Made by a program: the position numbers and the translations under genes
Shown here: one piece after another, positions 6,431 through 33,070 of the stretch
Numbering within the stretch: position 1 is the first letter of the stretch
How the letters are laid out: each line of letters starts with the position of its first letter
Virus record (IMG/VR): IMGVR_UViG_2824233761_000002
Span: 7,054 to 71,053 of that record
DNA length: 64,000 bases
From: a virus
Lineage: Duplodnaviria; Caudoviricetes
Reading direction: 5' to 3' (one strand)
Notes under the pieces: generated by a model
Databases searched by the model: none
What the model was told of the DNA's origin: nothing
Seen by the model: the letters and a program-made list of their open reading frames with translations, nothing else

Positions 6431-8331
6431 GCAGCCAGACGTTCCACACCCTCGACGTGCTCCGCCTCGAGGTCGAGCAGCCACCCGCCACCGGCCTGCG
6501 GAACCGGATCAAGAACCCCGACGGCGTCGGCGGCGGCTGGGGCTGGATCACCCCCCAGACGAACCAGAACATCGGCGGCCTGGTCGACGGCTCCGGCCCC
6601 TACCTGTCGTTCGCCTCGATGGACACGTTCATGCCCGGGGAGTTCGGGTCCGAGCCCATCCCCGCCCGGCCCGGCCAGTGGGTCAACTGGCGCGCCGAGG
6701 TCCGGTCCACCAACCGCAGCTACCAGATCGGCCTCCAGCACCTCAACGCCGACGGGACCGTCGTCGGTGGGTTCATGCTGCTGGCCTCTACCGCCACCGG
6801 CGTCCGGTCCGGGTCCGCACACCAGATCACCGACCCCACCGTCGTCGCCGTCCGCCTCCGCGCCTACCAGGTCGGCGGAGGCGCGCCGCCCTGGGGCTTC
6901 TCCTGGCGCAAGGCGATGGTCGCGGTCGAGGACACCAACACCGGCATGACCGGCATGGCCTACACCGAGACCCAGTGGGTCAACATCCTCGGCAAGTCCC
7001 ACAGCGTCCAGATCGAGCGGTCAGAGCTCAACCTCGGCATCCTCGCCGCGGTCGTCTACGACGCCGACCTCGACCCCGCCCAGGCCGGCGTCCACCTCGG
7101 CCAGGGCATCCGCGCCCACGCCCTCGTCGCAGGCTCCTGGGAGCCCCTGCACGTCGGGTCGCTGACCAACGCCCGCGCCGAGTACAACCCCCTGGCCACC
7201 GACGTCGACAAGCGCGCCAAGATCACCCTCACCGCCACCGACGCCGCCGGCACCCTGGGCCGGGTCCCGCGCCCCGACGGCGTGGCCACCATCCCCGACC
7301 TCATCGGCGTCCTGGAGGGCGCCGGAGTCCCGTGGAACATCAACGGCTCCACCAGCCAGCGGTTCCCCGGACCCACCGTCTCGACCAACCCCGACGCCCG
7401 CGCGATCGACCAGGTCGCGATCACCCGCGACACCGTCCACGGCTACGCCTGGATCTCCCGGGCCGGGGTGCTCACCGCCTGGGACGCCGACCAGCTCCCC
7501 ACCGGCGTGGCCGCGGTCCTCGACGAGGACGACATGACCGCCCTCTCGATCGACTACGACACCGACCGGTGTATCAACATCGTCACGGTCAAGTACCTCC
7601 GGCCGGGCGGCGAGGAGGTCACCTACGGCCCCTACGTCGACCAGGCCAGCCGCGAGCAGTGGGGCGAGCACACCGCCGAGTTCACCGTCCACGGCATCCC
7701 CGAGACCGAAGCCAACATGGCCGCGTTCGCCAACGCCGTGTTCGCCGCCAACGCCACACCCCAGCGGCGCGTCAACACCGTCACCCTCCCGGTCCGCACC
7801 CCGGCCGAGCTGCCCAAGACGCTGCTCGACCTCTACGACCTCGTCACCGTCCAGAACGCCGACCTCGACCTCGACCAGTCGATGCGGATCACCGGCGTGC
7901 GGCACCAGATCGCCACCGACCGATGGTCGGTCACCCTCGAGTTCGCCGCCCAGGGCGGGGTCGCACCGCCCCAGCAGACCCCATCAGCGGGCCCGACGGT
8001 GGCTGCCGGAGCGGGTGAGTGGGTCGCCGCGGCTCCGACGAACGGGTGGACCGGCGCGGTCTACTACAACGTCGCGGACGGCATGTGCACGGCGATCCTC
8101 GACCTGTTCAAGACGGCGTGGGGTGCCGAGGTCATGGCCCAGCTCCCACCAGGCGCCATCCCCAAACCGGCGTTGCCCGCGGGCATGTACTTCTACGGGC
8201 TGTCGCGGGACACCGGCGCGCAGGCGCCGTTCTGGGTGGGCGTCGGCGGTGACATCGGCTGTGTCTTCGGGTCCGCCGTCACTGGTGGCGGCGGGATCAC
8301 CGGAACCATCACCTACCCCGTGCGCCGATAA
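6427..8331 (+). CDS. Minor tail protein
   Basis: 634 aa directly after TMP; C-terminal GTITYPV tail-fibre-like end. Confidence 0.75.
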   Translation: MSSQTFHTLDVLRLEVEQPPATGLRNRIKNPDGVGGGWGWITPQTNQNIGGLVDGSGPYLSFASMDTFMPGEFGSEPIPARPGQWVNWRAEVRSTNRSYQIGLQHLNADGTVVGGFMLLASTATGVRSGSAHQITDPTVVAVRLRAYQVGGGAPPWGFSWRKAMVAVEDTNTGMTGMAYTETQWVNILGKSHSVQIERSELNLGILAAVVYDADLDPAQAGVHLGQGIRAHALVAGSWEPLHVGSLTNARAEYNPLATDVDKRAKITLTATDAAGTLGRVPRPDGVATIPDLIGVLEGAGVPWNINGSTSQRFPGPTVSTNPDARAIDQVAITRDTVHGYAWISRAGVLTAWDADQLPTGVAAVLDEDDMTALSIDYDTDRCINIVTVKYLRPGGEEVTYGPYVDQASREQWGEHTAEFTVHGIPETEANMAAFANAVFAANATPQRRVNTVTLPVRTPAELPKTLLDLYDLVTVQNADLDLDQSMRITGVRHQIATDRWSVTLEFAAQGGVAPPQQTPSAGPTVAAGAGEWVAAAPTNGWTGAVYYNVADGMCTAILDLFKTAWGAEVMAQLPPGAIPKPALPAGMYFYGLSRDTGAQAPFWVGVGGDIGCVFGSAVTGGGGITGTITYPVRR

Positions 8332-13495: not shown

Positions 13496-14995
13496 CTACC
13501 GCTCCCAGACGCCCTTCACCACAACGTCCGCGCGCGGCCGCCCCGTCCACACCCGCACCGGCCGGATCAAGTCACGCAGCACCTCCCGCCGGTGCTCCAC
13601 CGGCCGGTCATCCCACGACCCCAGCAGATCCTGCGCGATCCCCACCGGATCCGACGGCCCCCGCCGCGCCGACACCGCAGCGTCCTCATGCGCGGCCTGC
13701 AACTGATCCCGCTTCTCCACCAGGCCCGCCACCGTCTTGGCGTAGACCTCCGGCGGCAGCGGCGCCGACGCGTTCGACAGGGCCAGCTGCTGCAGCTCGG
13801 CATCGACGCGCGCGACAGCCCGGGCGAGTCGGTCCGCCTCCGACCTCGAGGCGGTGACGCGGGCCTCGGCAGCCAGGGCGACGTTGCGCCGCTCGTCGAC
13901 CTCGCCGGCGAGGTCGACGAGCCAGGCGTAGACCTTGTCCTCGACGTGCGACGCCATCACGTACCCGCCCTTGCACACGGCTGGGCCGATCTCCTTGCCG
14001 TTCTGGCACCGGTACTTGGGGACCCGATAGGCGCCGAACTGGCCGGCGACCATCGATCCTCCGCACCGACCGCAGCGGATCAACCCGGAGAGCAGGTACT
14101 GCGACCGGATCGTCCGGGCCGGCCTCGCAGCCCTGAGTCGCCGGGCGTCGAGGTATGCCTGCCACAGCTCTTGGTCGATGACGGGCTCGTGGACGCCAGG
14201 ATGCAGGGTCGGCTCGATCTTCCGGGCCCGGTCGCCGCCGGCGAGGAAGGACCCGGTCGCGAAGCCGGAGTCGAGGACGCGGCGCAGCGTACGGTCCGAC
14301 CACGGCCCGGGGTCCTTCTTCCCGTACCCACCGACGGTCAGGTGGCCATGAGCGTTGAGCCACCGCACCAGCTGGTAGACGGACTCGCCGGCGACGTAGC
14401 GGCGGTACATGTCCGCGAGGACGGGGGCGGTGACCGGATTAGGAACGTGGAGCTTCTTCTCGCGGTCGTAGACGTAGCCGAACCGATCTTTCCCGGTCGG
14501 CGGCCGGCCGGCGCGAACCCGTGAAGCGTGGACCTCCTTCCACACCTCCCCGATGCGCTCGGCCTCGAACGCCTGGAGCTCGGCGAGCATCCCGCGGGCG
14601 AGCCGGCCGCTCGAGGTGGTGGTGTCGAACTGCTCAGTGGCGGACTCGAGCCGGCCGCCGGCCTCTTCGACGCGGTCGATCGCGACGGCCCACCGGAGCC
14701 GGTGGCGTGCCGCGCGGGAGTACTTCCAGACGACGAGGACGTCGTACTCCCCCGCTTCGATGGCGGCGACGGCCTGGTCGAGGCGGGGCCACCAGGCGGA
14801 GCGGGCGCGGGATCCGGACTCGTCGATGCCTTCGAGCCAGCCGGCGATCTCGTAGCCGCGGGTGGCGGCATAGTCGATGATCGCGGTGCGCTGGACCTCC
14901 GGGGAGATCATCCCTTCACGTTCCTGGGAGACCCGCACGAGCCCGAGCGCCCTCGGTGGGGCTTCGGGGACGACGCGCAGCTGACGCCCGGTCAT
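13496..14995 (-). CDS. Large serine recombinase (integrase)
   Basis: LVRVSQ catalytic Ser; VWKYSRAAR; recombinase domain; LSGLIRCGRCG zinc ribbon; coiled coil. Confidence 0.95.
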   Translation of the reverse strand: MTGRQLRVVPEAPPRALGLVRVSQEREGMISPEVQRTAIIDYAATRGYEIAGWLEGIDESGSRARSAWWPRLDQAVAAIEAGEYDVLVVWKYSRAARHRLRWAVAIDRVEEAGGRLESATEQFDTTTSSGRLARGMLAELQAFEAERIGEVWKEVHASRVRAGRPPTGKDRFGYVYDREKKLHVPNPVTAPVLADMYRRYVAGESVYQLVRWLNAHGHLTVGGYGKKDPGPWSDRTLRRVLDSGFATGSFLAGGDRARKIEPTLHPGVHEPVIDQELWQAYLDARRLRAARPARTIRSQYLLSGLIRCGRCGGSMVAGQFGAYRVPKYRCQNGKEIGPAVCKGGYVMASHVEDKVYAWLVDLAGEVDERRNVALAAEARVTASRSEADRLARAVARVDAELQQLALSNASAPLPPEVYAKTVAGLVEKRDQLQAAHEDAAVSARRGPSDPVGIAQDLLGSWDDRPVEHRREVLRDLIRPVRVWTGRPRADVVVKGVWER

Positions 14996-15053: not shown

Positions 15054-15275
15054 TCATGCCGTCTCGTCCTCGTCGGCGGACTCGAACAGCCGATGGAGGT
15101 ACTCCTCGTGGTTGGCATACCGCATGCCGACGACCACGCCCTGCCCGATGATCCCGATGCCCCCGACGATGCTCGCGAGCACCAAGATGACGGTGCCGAT
15201 CGCTTGACCGTCCTCGGCTGCTGCGATGAGCCCACCGAGGATAGTCAGACCCACGCCAACGTAGATGTACGTCAT
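15054..15275 (-). CDS. Small two-TM membrane protein
   Basis: MTYIYVGVGLTILGGLIAA...VILVLASIVGGIGIIG; typical int-adjacent membrane gene. Confidence 0.6.
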   Translation of the reverse strand: MTYIYVGVGLTILGGLIAAAEDGQAIGTVILVLASIVGGIGIIGQGVVVGMRYANHEEYLHRLFESADEDETA

Positions 15276-15326
15276 CGGCGTCCCCGGCCTCGGCCGCAGG
15301 TCACCTGCTTCTCTCATTCCAGGCTC

Positions 15327-15791
15327 CTAGATGGTGATGGTCGCGAGCTGCTCGTCGAGGTACGCCCGCTCGCGGGGCGTGAGGGAGCTGAGCCGGACGG
15401 CGAGCGTGTCGTCGTCGACCCAGAGCTCCCAGGCTGCCTTCTCGTGGTCGGCCTGATGCCAGGCCAGCGCGTGCCCGATCCACCGGATGCTCGGCGCCAG
15501 GAGCCGGCCGACCTTGCGGTCGATGATCAGCTCCTCCCTCATCCGCCGATCCGGAGCGCACGGGCCCCGAACGATGTGCTGGGTCTCGTGGGCGATGGTG
15601 CACCGGCGCTCGGCCTCGTCGAGGCCGTTTGCGAGATACACCCGCCGCTCGTCGAAGCTGGTCAGCCCCCACTGCCCGTCCGGAAGGTCGTCGGTCCAGA
15701 CCAGCCGCCAGTCGCGGTAGGTCCCGAAGACGCGCCACGGATGGTGCCGGTGGCGGCGGGGATCGCGGAAGACGTGGATGGGGTCGACCAT
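15327..15791 (-). CDS. ImmA/IrrE-family zinc metallopeptidase (putative antirepressor)
   Basis: RRCTIAHETQH (HExxH) and E...DRKVGRLL; located between integrase and repressor. Confidence 0.85.
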   Translation of the reverse strand: MVDPIHVFRDPRRHRHHPWRVFGTYRDWRLVWTDDLPDGQWGLTSFDERRVYLANGLDEAERRCTIAHETQHIVRGPCAPDRRMREELIIDRKVGRLLAPSIRWIGHALAWHQADHEKAAWELWVDDDTLAVRLSSLTPRERAYLDEQLATITI

Positions 15792-15799
15792 GACCCGGG

Positions 15800-15821
15800 A
15801 CCGTAGAGCCGACCGCCGACA
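15800..15821 (-). promoter_or_regulatory. PafBC-type (RecA-NDp) DNA-damage promoter of the ImmA-like gene
   Basis: Minus strand TGTCGG-cggtcggctc-TACGGT, 8 nt before the ATG at 15791; exact TGTCGG-N10-TANNNT. Confidence 0.75.
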
Positions 15822-15837: not shown

Positions 15838-16308
15838 CTAGCGGGGCTCCATGTCGTCGGGGTCGTCCGGTTCGGGCTCCCCCGCGCGTTCGGCGTTTCG
15901 CTGGCGCTGCTGGTTTTTCGAGACCTTCCCGGTCGTACGCGCGGCTGACCGTAGTCCGGTCAGTGCAGGCGCGCTGGTGGCGGCGGTGTCTCCACCGTGC
16001 TCACCCCTCTCCTCTGCTCGTCGGAGGATCTCCTTGATGAGCTCCACCTCGTCGAGTGAGCTGAGGGACGGCACCGCCGTCGGCCGCACCCGGGCCTCTT
16101 CCTCGGTCAGGAAGTCCGCCGCCACGAATGCCTCAAGGATCGGGCGGCCGTAGGCACGAGCGAACGCTGCCACCTGCTTGGCGTCCGGCGACTTGATGCC
16201 GCCGTTCTTCCATCGCGCGATCGACGGCTCAGTGACGCCGACCTTCTGCGCGATGACGCGGTTGACCTCGCCGCTGCTCCAGCGTGCGACGTACTCGCTC
16301 CAGCTCAC
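15838..16308 (-). CDS. Prophage immunity repressor (XRE HTH)
   Basis: NRVIAQKVGVTEPSIARWKNG; divergent from cro; TACGGT 6 nt upstream of the GTG (leaderless). Confidence 0.85.
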   Translation of the reverse strand: MSWSEYVARWSSGEVNRVIAQKVGVTEPSIARWKNGGIKSPDAKQVAAFARAYGRPILEAFVAADFLTEEEARVRPTAVPSLSSLDEVELIKEILRRAEERGEHGGDTAATSAPALTGLRSAARTTGKVSKNQQRQRNAERAGEPEPDDPDDMEPR

Positions 16309-16562
16309 GGCATGACCGTATTGCGGGTTCGGGGCGCATCCACGTCCCCAATCATGCCTTGCGTTGACGCAAGTGCGCAGGTGGCGGCATTACACGCGTG
16401 TCTTTCTGCACGTCAGGAGCCATTCGGGCTTGCGCAAGTGCCGCGTTGCCAAACCGTGACCTTCGTGTATTGCGTTCGCGCCAGTCTCGTGCGTATTGTT
16501 CACGCATTGCCGCAAGACAGCAGGTCAGCGGCCCAGACACGCAGAAGGAAGGAGGCGAGGTG
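16309..16562. promoter_or_regulatory. Divergent repressor/cro control region with operator-like repeats
   Basis: Palindrome TTGCGT-TG-ACGCAA at 16359-16372 plus several TTGCG/CGCAA half-sites; more AT-rich than flanks. Confidence 0.65.
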
Positions 16563-16799
16563 ATGACCGCCGTTCTCCGTCTCAAGCTCGACCAGCTCGG
16601 CAAGATCCGAGGCTGGACCGGGCTCAAGACGGACGCCGCGCTCGCCGCGGCCATGGGCATCGACGCGGGGAACCTCTCCCGCGTCCTCAAGGGCAAGCAG
16701 CAGCCCGGCCCCAAGTTCATCGCTGCCCTGTGCACGGCGCTCAAGGCCGACCTCGAGGACCTCTTCGAGATCGTCGACGACGCCGAGGACGTGGCGTGA
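16563..16799 (+). CDS. Cro-like HTH protein
   Basis: DAALAAAMGIDAGNLSRVLKGKQQPGPKFIAALC; RBS AGGAGG. Confidence 0.85.
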   Translation: MTAVLRLKLDQLGKIRGWTGLKTDAALAAAMGIDAGNLSRVLKGKQQPGPKFIAALCTALKADLEDLFEIVDDAEDVA

Positions 16800-31409: not shown

Positions 31410-31938
31410 ATGAAGGCGTTGACGGTGCAGCAGCCGTGGGCGTGGGCGATCGTGCACGGCGGGAAGGACGTCGAGAACCGGACTCAAGCGTGGTCGTATC
31501 GGGGCCTGCTCGCCATCCACGCCGGTGCGCGCTGGTCCGATCGAGGCGGACGCTCAGGGCTCGTGTGGGACGCGCTGCGGGACCCGCTACGGCTGGCCGA
31601 CCGGGGCGGTCACTGCGCGTGACGACCGGCGGCCCGGGTTCGACGTGATCCGCCCACTTGGCGCGATCATCGGCGTGGTCGACTTGGTCGGCGTGCACGC
31701 AGCGCAGTCGGTCGCCCGCTGGCCTGAACAGCCCGCCTGCTGTGACTCGCGGTGGGCCGAGACGTCGTACGCCGAGCACGGCGGCCGCACCCGCCGCGAC
31801 GTCGTGCACCTGGTGCTGGAGAACCCGCGGCCGCTCCCCGAGCCGATCCCGTGCAAGGGCCGGCTCGGGCTGTGGACGCCGCCGGCCGATGTGCTGGCGC
31901 AGCTGCTCGCTGACGCCGGATGGGAGCGCACCGAATGA
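31410..31938 (+). pseudogene. ASCH-domain protein, frameshifted
   Basis: MKALTVQQPWAWAIVHGGKDVENR...AIHAG stops at 31622; PLGAIIGVVDL...LENPRPLPEPIPCKGRLGLW continues in another frame to 31938. Confidence 0.7.
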
Positions 31939-32120
31939 GCGGCACCGCCGACCCGCACGAGCCTCCCCCGCTGCCCGCTTTCCAGTGGCGGGTGACCCGC
32001 ACACCGTCGGTCGTCAGGTCGGGTGGGCCGGAACGGATCTACGACCAGGCGGCCGCGGATCCCGCCTACGAGACGCCGCGGGTCCGGGGGTTCTCGGTCG
32101 CCGACGTCGACCCAAGCATG
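31935..32120 (+). pseudogene. Small early gene apparently interrupted by the antisense cassette
   Basis: Coupled ATG at 31935; phage-like codons until ~32120, then reads antisense through the cassette to 32831. Confidence 0.35.
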
Positions 32121-32127
32121 ACCCTGC

Positions 32128-32292
32128 TTAGACGAGGTGTCCTCTGCCCTCGATGTGCCCCGAGCACTTTGGGTTGGTGCACACACGCTGCTCACCGAAC
32201 GACTGCTCACGCTCAGCCATCTTCCGTGGCCGGGCGACCTGGTCGATCCGCACGGGTTTGCCGCAGAGCCCGCACGGCCTGTCGTCGCTCAT
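32128..32292 (-). CDS. 54-aa zinc-ribbon protein
   Basis: MSDDRPCGLCG...CTNPKC; ATGA coupling to the upstream bactofilin-like gene. Confidence 0.6.
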   Translation of the reverse strand: MSDDRPCGLCGKPVRIDQVARPRKMAEREQSFGEQRVCTNPKCSGHIEGRGHLV

Positions 32293-32783
32293 CGCTGACC
32301 GGCTTCGATGTCGGCCTGCATCTGAGCCTGGGGGACGAATCTCCGTTGCTCGGAAACCCAGATGCACAGCCTGTTGCTGTCGACCGTCAGGTCTCCGCCA
32401 CGTACGAACGACTCAAGGGATCCGTCCTCGTGCACGACCTTGGAGTGCTCAACCAGCGAGCCGACCGCAACGGCAAAGGTTCCCATGTCGTCCAACTGGG
32501 AGAACGCGACCCCGGTTACGCCCGCCACCATGATGACGCCGTCGTTGGAGACGTCTCCAGGCTCGAAGGCCCCGTTGACGCTGAGCACGGCGTCATCCTC
32601 GACGACCAGGCGCCCTGCGAACGCGCCGTTCACGGTGAGGGCTGCTCCGCCGTGGATCGTCGCACCGCGCACACCGCCGTTGACCGTGACCGATCTGGTG
32701 ACGTCCAGATTCTCGAACTCGCCGTAGAGATCGCCAGCGCTCATCTCGCCGCCCTTCCTCCTCGTGCGACCCGACTGCCGCAT
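32289..32783 (-). CDS. Bactofilin-like / beta-solenoid protein (alternative start 32744)
   Basis: Repeats VTVNGGV, LTVNGAF, LSVNGAF, VSNDGVI; leaderless ATG 7 nt after the -10 box. Confidence 0.6.
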   Translation of the reverse strand: MRQSGRTRRKGGEMSAGDLYGEFENLDVTRSVTVNGGVRGATIHGGAALTVNGAFAGRLVVEDDAVLSVNGAFEPGDVSNDGVIMVAGVTGVAFSQLDDMGTFAVAVGSLVEHSKVVHEDGSLESFVRGGDLTVDSNRLCIWVSEQRRFVPQAQMQADIEAGQR

Positions 32784-32790
32784 CCACCCG

Positions 32791-32812
32791 ACCGTAGCCA
32801 CGCTCGCCGACA
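32791..32812 (-). promoter_or_regulatory. PafBC-type (RecA-NDp) DNA-damage promoter
   Basis: Minus strand TGTCGG-cgagcgtggc-TACGGT, 7 nt before the ATG at 32783. Confidence 0.75.
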
Positions 32813-32827
32813 GCCGCAGGAGAACCG

Positions 32828-33070
32828 ATGACCCTGCCCGCCACCTGCCGGCACGCCGACACCGTCCCGGTCGAGGTCCGTGACTCGCTCGACGCCGGCA
32901 CCGTGCCCACCACCGTGCCCACCACCGTGGTCGCGCACATCTGCCGTGGCTGCCACGAGACCCTCCCCGCGGCGTGGGGCTGCACGGACTGCTCGTGGGT
33001 CGAGGAACGCGCGATGTGCGAACCGGTGCCGCGGCTGCTGCTCGCCCACCCCTGCCAGGAGCACGCATGA
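32828..33070 (+). CDS. Zinc-binding hypothetical protein
   Basis: RBS AGGAG; CRH, CRGCH and CTDC motifs. Confidence 0.55.
   Translation: MTLPATCRHADTVPVEVRDSLDAGTVPTTVPTTVVAHICRGCHETLPAAWGCTDCSWVEERAMCEPVPRLLLAHPCQEHA

Follow-up and report, generated by a model that had tools for sequence, protein, structure and literature searches.

The stretch of DNA analysed here (64,000 nucleotides, positions 7,054 to 71,053 of the Caudoviricetes record IMGVR_UViG_2824233761_000002; 'the window' in what follows) raises the question of how a DNA-damage signal could reach a prophage repressor that has no autopeptidase domain of its own. To our knowledge, a LexA-like self-cleavage domain is missing from most repressors of temperate actinobacteriophages, and the route by which the damage signal reaches them is unclear. 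Between the repressor gene and the integrase gene of this prophage lies a short gene encoding a HExxH metalloprotease, preceded by a 22-bp sequence that resembles the promoters recognized together with the host activator PafBC. Our proposal, to which we assign a probability of about 0.6, is that DNA damage would act through PafBC to raise the level of this protease, which would inactivate the repressor and induce the prophage. The two features on which the proposal turns are the following:

15800-15821, minus strand: putative PafBC-type promoter (RecA-NDp, 'sigma adaptation'), identified from pattern scan, consensus, host regulon and conservation

15327-15791, minus strand: minimal ImmA/IrrE-like (COG2856/M78) zinc metalloprotease, 154 amino acids, identified from PHROG match, homologs and modelled fold

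A putative PafBC-type promoter ahead of the protease gene

Read directly on the minus strand, the site consists of a -26 element TGTCGG (15821-15816), a spacer of 10 nucleotides (cggtcggctc, 15815-15806) and a -10 element TACGGT (15805-15800), followed after eight nucleotides (cccgggtc) by the ATG of the HExxH gene at 15791. This is the arrangement described in an earlier inspection of the letters without database searches (hereafter the sequence-only reading), which had also placed the motif just past the repressor stop; the stop codon of the upstream XRE gene lies at 15840-15838, leaving a gap of 16 nucleotides to TGTCGG. The PafBC consensus determined in vivo, tGTCgg(N10)tA(N3)T, spans 22 nucleotides, with its 5' part at -23 to -28 and its 3' part corresponding to the SigA -10 element (PMC8635444). 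The window site conforms to it throughout, with both a -26 element and a SigA-type -10 element, and the consensus TGTCGG-N10-TANNNT on which the sequence-only reading relied agrees with this published form.

A pattern scan of the window returned exactly two matches to TGTCGG-N10-TANNNT (15800-15821 and 32791-32812), both on the minus strand. The chance expectation per window, estimated by dinucleotide shuffles, ranges from 0.03 (TGTCGG) to 0.10 (TGTCRG), and none of the shuffles reached two matches. The two perfect matches previously counted by eye, against a rough expectation of 0.1, were therefore correct, as was the remark that both sit at start codons, an ATG following the -10 element after eight nucleotides (15791) in the first case and after seven (32783) in the second.

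No purine-rich ribosome-binding site could be recognized ahead of the protease ATG, and the predicted transcript would begin at or beside this codon and hence be leaderless. Since the open reading frame (ORF) lacks a recognizable ribosome-binding site, transcripts reading through from the repressor gene should yield little protease, and efficient translation is expected only from the leaderless transcript. Judged from its sequence and its relatives, the 22-bp site is very probably a genuine PafBC promoter.

The host encodes PafBC and uses the same promoter type

The host genome (G000; 5.81 Mb, 71.7% guanine plus cytosine, G+C) probably belongs to a member of the Nocardioidaceae, because the relatives of the protease all come from Nocardioides, Marmoricola and other Actinomycetota. 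A host without pafBC, which the sequence-only reading had named as an outcome that would contradict it, is not what we found. The genes pafB and pafC adjoin pafA and proteasome genes (proteasome-pafA-FKBP-pafB-pafC-tatC) and form a tandem of WYL genes, the second of which contains an HTH_PafC domain (1e-39). Host PafB matches PafB of Mycobacterium smegmatis (7P5X) with an E value of 4e-55; of the two arginines that read GTC (PMC8635444), it keeps R50, R46 being replaced by lysine. PafBC is activated by single-stranded DNA (ssDNA), and transcription of recA in vitro by RNA polymerase with SigA needs both PafBC and ssDNA (PMC11804915).

The whole-genome scan of the host detected 34 motif sites, all with TGTCGG, about 26 of which have a start codon 6-8 nucleotides after the -10 element, i.e., the leaderless layout. 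Composition alone predicts about 9-15 matches in a genome of 5.8 Mb and 72% G+C (calculation and scaled shuffles). Among the host genes behind the motif are polA, dnaE, dnaX, nth, radA, recA, uvrB, uvrC, sbcD, dnaB, ssb and clpP, as well as genes for an AlkZ-like glycosylase, an RNase T-type exonuclease, an SNF2 helicase, a DUF3263 protein and a DUF3097 protein. As the motif heads host repair genes in the leaderless layout, it represents the PafBC promoter type of this host, and the prophage site has the identical form. Two other host sites with a PafBC-type promoter and a leaderless start precede genes that resemble those of mobile elements and have a low G+C at third codon positions. One (C1:1116347, plus strand) encodes a protein of 180 amino acids, with another serine-integrase homolog at a distance of about 10 kb, and the other (C15:2354, plus strand) encodes a zinc-ribbon-like protein of 75 amino acids.

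The motif is conserved ahead of protease homologs

In 18 of the 19 Nocardioidaceae genome loci with a protease homolog, an exact TGTCRG-N10-TANNNT is present, with its -10 element ending 6-8 nucleotides before the homolog start, and it is the only match in each of these loci of about 8 kb. The nineteenth reads CGTCGG-N10-TACGGT, the GTC core being kept. The motif is also found in all three distinct close metagenome relatives (70-84% identical), which share the layout cro, repressor, protease, small ORF (missing in one) and integrase, the latter being of the serine type in two and of the tyrosine type in one. The -26 box, the -10 element and the start distance are thus kept in 22/22 Nocardioidaceae relatives (one with CGTCGG), and conservation is limited to the two boxes, the spacer and flanks being variable. 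When the window repressor, membrane protein, integrase and Cro-like protein were compared with the 19 homolog loci by tblastn, the only match concerned the repressor tail, in locus L036 (L numbers denote the compared loci). This near absence of matches indicates that the neighbours were not inherited together with the protease.

A tblastn search of cultured phages with the protease retrieved 183 records, mostly Gordonia and Mycobacterium phages, in which the gene is annotated 'metallo-protease' or 'IrrE-like'. We sampled 19 diverse phages from these records. A perfect motif followed after 7-8 nucleotides by ATG or GTG is present in 13 of them, ahead of Sbash gp42, Che9c gp43, Squirty gp37, Dori gp46, Tortellini gp34, phiGD22-1 gp40, prophiGD43A-1 gp5, Sidious gp39, Matteo gp34, Utz gp35, BatStarr gp41, DobbysSock gp33 and Gambino gp42. 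Four others (BritBrat, Lucky10, Apricot and MinS1) keep TGTCGG with a deviating -10 element, and phage Morgana has neither box. The -26 box is therefore retained in 17 of the 19 sampled phages of other genera despite their unrelated repressors. The sequence-only reading had made conservation ahead of homologs a touchstone of its proposal, and the motif proved to be conserved both in the Nocardioidaceae relatives and, in 13 perfect and four partial instances, in the sampled phages.

In the Rhodococcus phage Mbo4 (L068:1302-1317), a perfect LexA box, TCGAACACCTGTTCGA, abuts the -10 element TAGATT ahead of the homologous metallopeptidase gene and replaces the PafBC box. This exchange of a PafBC box for a LexA box supports damage-controlled transcription of the protease gene as a selected trait.

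Several homologs belong to a chromosomal clade of Nocardioidaceae (proteases about 50-55% identical) that keeps the PafBC promoter and has a ddl-like ligase, a LuxR-type regulator and secreted proteins nearby. No integrase was found within 4 kb of the homologs of this clade (L039-L048, L051-L054). The protease is paired there, in syntenic surroundings, with a conserved small helix-turn-helix (HTH) protein of about 115 amino acids beginning MGQLWDLVQAY. These upstream proteins match no Pfam family, and their HTH assignment is based on weak pairwise similarity and on reading of the sequence. The pair may be a domesticated XRE/protease regulator, parallel to PprI-DdrO.

The loci also show additional elements. 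A conserved element of about 15 nucleotides, GT(A/G)(A/T)TTCCTGGTCAG, lies 9-11 nucleotides upstream of the TGTC box in Mycobacterium and Gordonia phages (L060-L067, L072-L078); it is common to phages with unrelated repressors and absent from host PafBC promoters. The chromosomal clade shares an element cTGTGGACA about 20 nucleotides upstream. Such conserved upstream elements may be the site of a second regulator. In many cultured phages, the gene immediately behind the protease gene encodes a small DUF3263/HTH protein (Che9c gp42, BritBrat gp38, Apricot gp50), and a DUF3263 gene lies beyond the integrase in three metagenome relatives, directly adjacent in two.

Some protease starts are called inside or upstream of the promoter, namely those of Sidious gp39 (L061:2420), Gambino gp42 (L075:1117), BatStarr gp41 (L073:1045) and phiGD22-1 gp40 (L064:1336), and that of one metagenome call (L056:5001). 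The conserved N-terminus with its HPW motif, together with the promoter, indicates that the true start is leaderless, 7-8 nucleotides after the -10 element. The Microcystis phage MinS1 (MZ923504.1, L070) has 71% G+C in the stretch examined and an HTH/protease/integrase module of actinobacterial type with a TGTCGG box, its protease being 47% identical to that of the window; the assignment of this phage to a cyanobacterial host looks doubtful.

The protease is predicted to adopt the ImmA/IrrE/CapP fold

The 154-amino-acid protein carries HETQH, an instance of HExxH, at residues 68-72. A comparison of 28 diverse homologs shows H68, E69, H72 and E87 to be invariant, together with an N-terminal HHPW, and E87 is the putative third zinc ligand. 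The protein matches the PHROG 87 metallo-protease family (4.9e-10), and of its 251 detectable homologs many come with a precomputed hit to PF06114, one being annotated as ImmA/IrrE by NCBI. A search of PDB sequences with the protease profile gave no match.

A structure model of the protease was obtained with a predicted local distance difference test (pLDDT) score of 89.5. This model aligns with CapP (Z 9.8, 135 aligned), IrrE (Z 9.5) and PprI (Z 8.8, about 130 residues), as well as with the M78-like domain of Mycobacterium tuberculosis PrpR (Z 8.5), whereas unrelated zincins score only Z 5-7.5; Foldseek gave a probability of 1.00 for the fold match. According to the model, the window protein has the ImmA/IrrE/CapP fold (COG2856 protease domain), which upholds its earlier description as an ImmA-like HExxH metalloprotease. 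The 154 amino acids leave no room for the GAF-like sensor domain of IrrE/PprI.

The protease gene lies in the immunity and integration module

The neighbouring features, and a second site to which we return below, are:

15838-16308, minus strand: XRE-family, CI-like prophage repressor, 156 amino acids, from HTH_3 and PHROG repressor families

16309-16562, no strand assigned: divergent control region between the repressor and cro-like genes, 254 bp, from sequence reading

16563-16799, plus strand: Cro-like HTH protein, 78 amino acids, from HTH_31 (2.1e-8); GGAGG ribosome-binding site

15054-15317, minus strand: predicted membrane protein (hydrophobic), 87 amino acids; no Pfam family; own AGGAG ribosome-binding site

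13496-14995, minus strand: large serine integrase, 499 amino acids, from Resolvase (1.9e-21), Recombinase and Zn_ribbon_recom

32289-32812, minus strand: second putative PafBC-type promoter (32812-32791) and ORF of 164 amino acids with a leaderless ATG at 32783, seven nucleotides after the -10 element

The leftward unit comprises, in this order, the genes for the repressor, the protease, the membrane protein and, at the left end of the prophage, the serine integrase, so that the HExxH gene indeed lies between repressor and integrase as first described. The unit is divergent from the cro-like gene, whose DNA resembles Cro/HTH genes of Gordonia phages and which opens a rightward early operon continuing with replication/recombination genes, terminase, portal and head protease. 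This layout of repressor, cro and integrase, together with the phage early and head genes, identifies the region as the immunity/integration end of a prophage. The membrane-protein gene starts nine nucleotides past the protease stop and is probably co-transcribed with the protease gene. Between the genes for protease and integrase, the minus strand showed no terminator-like site, and the integrase would accordingly be expected to rise with the protease.

The repressor (HTH_3, 1.6e-5; PHROG transcriptional repressor families, about 1e-20) has its HTH at the N-terminus and ends, over its C-terminal half, in a charged tail of low complexity that is probably disordered and carries the motif SAARTTG 35 residues from the end. 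HTH families are its only Pfam matches, without any S24 Ser-Lys autopeptidase domain, as the sequence-only reading had suspected. TTGCG..CGCAA palindromes are repeated in the control region 16309-16562 (e.g., at 16357-16373) and, from their sequence, are candidate operators. A -10-like TACGGT (16320-16315, minus strand) lies six nucleotides ahead of the repressor GTG (16308), with no TGTCGG box there, and the repressor mRNA is probably leaderless as well.

The immunity region contains no LexA box with fewer than two mismatches, nine perfect boxes being present elsewhere in the genome. LexA was considered as an input to the window prophage and rejected: only two-mismatch matches to TCGAAC-N4-GTTCGA occur in the window, none of them in the control region, and a single one-mismatch site, at 64338 in window numbering, lies outside the module. 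The lack of a usable LexA box in the prophage is in line with the LexA-independent wiring that had been postulated.

A C-terminal motif recurs in otherwise unrelated repressors

The unrelated repressors of protease-carrying phages share a C-terminal motif, hydrophobic-A-A-R-(R/K/D/G/T), located 6-35 residues from the end. It reads SAARTTG in the window repressor (tail, 15838-15945), LAARRVE in Sbash, EAARKVE in Squirty, LAARRVT in phiGD22-1, AAARRGR in Matteo and Sidious and KAARKR in BritBrat and Lucky10, and 10 of the 16 proteins in the family of the window repressor carry it. Among host ORFs, 1.9% show the strict pattern within their final 40 residues. A plain 'AAR' expression was discarded as a marker of the tail because it is too unspecific (6% of host ORFs and four of 14 Cro-like controls); the strict terminal-tail pattern alone is enriched.

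The motif recalls the cleavage site of DdrO, L106/R107, which lies 23 residues before the end of that protein (PMC6868357). In some of the phage repressors only 3-5 residues follow the tail arginine. We regard the motif as a lead for further work, a candidate tag at which the protease could recognize or cut the repressor.

A second putative PafBC-type promoter in the window

The ORF behind the second site (32783-32289) is antisense inside the early operon and encodes repeated xTVNGx units; no Pfam or PHROG family was found for it. Its G+C by codon position (0.68/0.43/0.80) follows a coding-type pattern with a lower third-position value (0.80), and the plus-strand ORF overlapping it (31920-32831) seems to be non-coding. 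Within 50 kb there is also a third PafBC-type promoter, about 1 kb past the right end of the window (C1:988571-988887; L035:999-1315) and seven nucleotides before a DUF3263 gene of 96 amino acids.

The proposed circuit and its alternatives

Adaptation of RNA polymerase-SigA by PafBC and ssDNA is established for mycobacteria. In the circuit that we propose, DNA damage would generate ssDNA, host PafBC would bind it and adapt RNA polymerase-SigA to the -26 TGTCGG/-10 TACGGT promoter, and a leaderless mRNA would be made from the protease ATG, probably running on through the membrane-protein and integrase genes. The protease would then build up and inactivate the XRE-type repressor encoded just upstream, releasing the divergent cro-like gene and the early lytic operon. 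As the protease has no sensor domain of the kind present in IrrE, PprI and CapP, damage sensing appears to have been handed to host PafBC at the level of transcription. We infer PafBC dependence in vivo, induction by damage, the protease substrate and prophage induction from the features described above. The simplest reading, by analogy with ImmR/ImmA of ICEBs1 and DdrO/IrrE of Deinococcus, is that the repressor would be cleaved.

Several observations weigh against this proposal. The match of the protease to Peptidase_M78 (PF06114; E 0.001, 19.3 bits) is below the cut-off of 22 bits. In an all-against-all comparison, the proteases of Sbash and Squirty are 84% identical and their repressors unrelated, and conversely the repressors of Sbash and Utz are 58% identical and their proteases only 41%. 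Protease and repressor therefore behave as separate mosaic modules, and a strict enzyme-substrate pair is not expected; the shared repressor tail motif may reconcile such shuffled pairs. Sidious, phiGD22-1 and DobbysSock have other genes between repressor and protease. Sbash genes 40-43, protease included, are expressed in uninduced lysogens (PMC6426596), and the transcription of this protease gene in undamaged cells suggests that transcription may not be the sole control. Partners of the COG2856 type can act without cleavage (PMC6868357), and the chromosomal clade without integrase shows that the module is more than a prophage switch.

Part of this evidence would also suit a different outcome, less probable than the proposed circuit yet the one we would take most seriously, in which the PafBC promoter is real and the protease does not cleave the immunity repressor. 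The protein could block its partner without cutting, as Rir does with Crh in phage TP-J34, a non-proteolytic mode being documented for COG2856/XRE pairs (PMC6868357); it could have another phage or host target; or the promoter could serve the downstream genes, whether membrane protein, small HTH protein or integrase. The mosaic evolution of the two genes and the phages in which they are not adjacent fit this view, as does the frequent occurrence behind the protease gene of a small DUF3263/HTH gene with overlapping stop and start codons, followed by the integrase. However, the invariance of the catalytic HExxH and E87 in 28 diverse homologs argues for an active enzyme, the immunity/integration module is invariably where the protease gene is located, in most cases immediately behind the repressor gene, and the solved relatives ImmA, IrrE/PprI and CapP all cut an XRE-type partner (PMC6868357).

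It seems improbable that, like CapH/CapP of CBASS, the XRE protein and the protease form a stress-responsive module acting in defence or in the manner of a toxin-antitoxin pair, with a protective or abortive function instead of a lytic trigger. CapP is the best fold match, the second putative PafBC promoter of the prophage would drive an antisense gene, the chromosomal clade keeps the pair without phage genes, and RexAB-like or HipA-like genes stand beside the protease gene in some phages. Yet the window XRE gene occupies the classical CI position, divergent from the cro-like and early replication genes, the Sbash gene upstream of the protease is an experimentally shown immunity repressor (PMC6426596), and the window encodes no defence effector between protease and integrase. 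Even harder to sustain, and in our view very unlikely, is the idea that the motif is not under PafBC control and either matches by chance, serves as a generic SigA promoter for leaderless transcripts or is bound as an operator by a phage regulator. The 9-15 chance matches expected per genome do imply that some of the 34 host hits are noise, but the spacing of the -26 box is kept in all 22 relatives and in 17 of the 19 phages while spacer and flanks diverge, the identical box heads host repair genes, and heteroimmune phages would not share a phage-specific operator.

Relation to known systems

The nearest precedent for the proposed circuit is ICEBs1 of Bacillus subtilis, with its ImmR/ImmA pair (pairs of the phi105 type being similar). 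As in the window, the gene for an XRE repressor is followed by that for a COG2856/M78 HExxH protease and then by the integrase gene, at the end of an integrated element, and ImmA is, like the window protease, small and without an extra sensor domain. The three ICEBs1 genes are described as forming a single operon, with post-translational activation of ImmA through RecA or RapI, whereas the window protease has its own putative damage-type PafBC promoter after the repressor gene and a predicted leaderless start. In sequence, the window protease resembles ImmA only over the HExxH region (Pfam E 0.001). ImmA cleaves ImmR between F95 and M96, derepressing ICEBs1 after DNA damage (PMC6868357).

PprI(IrrE)/DdrO of Deinococcus and CapP/CapH of CBASS provide the best structural matches to the modelled window protease (Z 8.8-9.8), and PprI and CapP are metalloproteases that cut an XRE-type repressor upon DNA damage independently of LexA. 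Both sense ssDNA themselves and carry an additional domain (PMC10904395); they are 240-280 amino acids long. The window protease, in contrast, has only 154 amino acids, and the ssDNA sensor would be host PafBC acting on transcription. The window site shares with the mycobacterial PafBC regulon its 22-nucleotide architecture without a -35 element (PMC8635444); unlike in the known regulon, which consists of cellular repair genes, the target would be the protease gene of a prophage immunity module.

The logic proposed here is also that of the LexA-controlled antirepressors, of which phage Mbo4 offers a version with the same protease family. In coliphage 186 (Tum), in the Gifsy and Fels prophages (antirepressors) and in N15 (AntC), the host damage regulator LexA controls a phage factor that inactivates a repressor unable to cleave itself. 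Unlike in these systems, the input to the window module would be an activator, PafBC, a WYL-domain ssDNA sensor, instead of derepression from LexA, and the factor has a predicted protease fold instead of being a binding antirepressor.

Across 8 million open-access papers and bioRxiv, we found no link between PafBC and ImmA/IrrE and no prophage target of PafBC, and Olivencia 2017 makes no mention of phage or peptidase. Switches of the ImmA/ImmR type and the PafBC regulon are each known; their connection appears new in the searchable open literature.

Significance for temperate actinobacteriophages

The locus connects two well-studied systems, the PafBC ssDNA sensor with its 'sigma adaptation' promoters and the repressor proteases of the ImmA/IrrE type, and it suggests that a phage can borrow an activator-type promoter from its host where enterobacterial phages borrow LexA boxes. 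A broader version of the proposal, which we advance tentatively and hold at somewhat less than even odds, is that a PafBC-driven IrrE/ImmA-like protease would be a general LexA/RecA-independent damage switch of the temperate phages of Mycobacterium, Gordonia, Nocardioides and relatives, with unrelated repressors carrying a portable AAR tail tag and some Nocardioidaceae pairs domesticated as chromosomal second-tier PafBC regulators.

At the level of annotation, the finding yields a rule for placing the leaderless start of these protease genes. The same pattern is present in Sbash, Che9c, Squirty, Dori and Tortellini, phages of M. smegmatis mc2 155, a strain with available lysogens, mutants in pafBC and recA and an in vitro transcription assay for PafBC, so that the hypothesis is directly testable. 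If true, it would explain the behaviour of mycobacterial prophages under DNA-damaging antibiotics.

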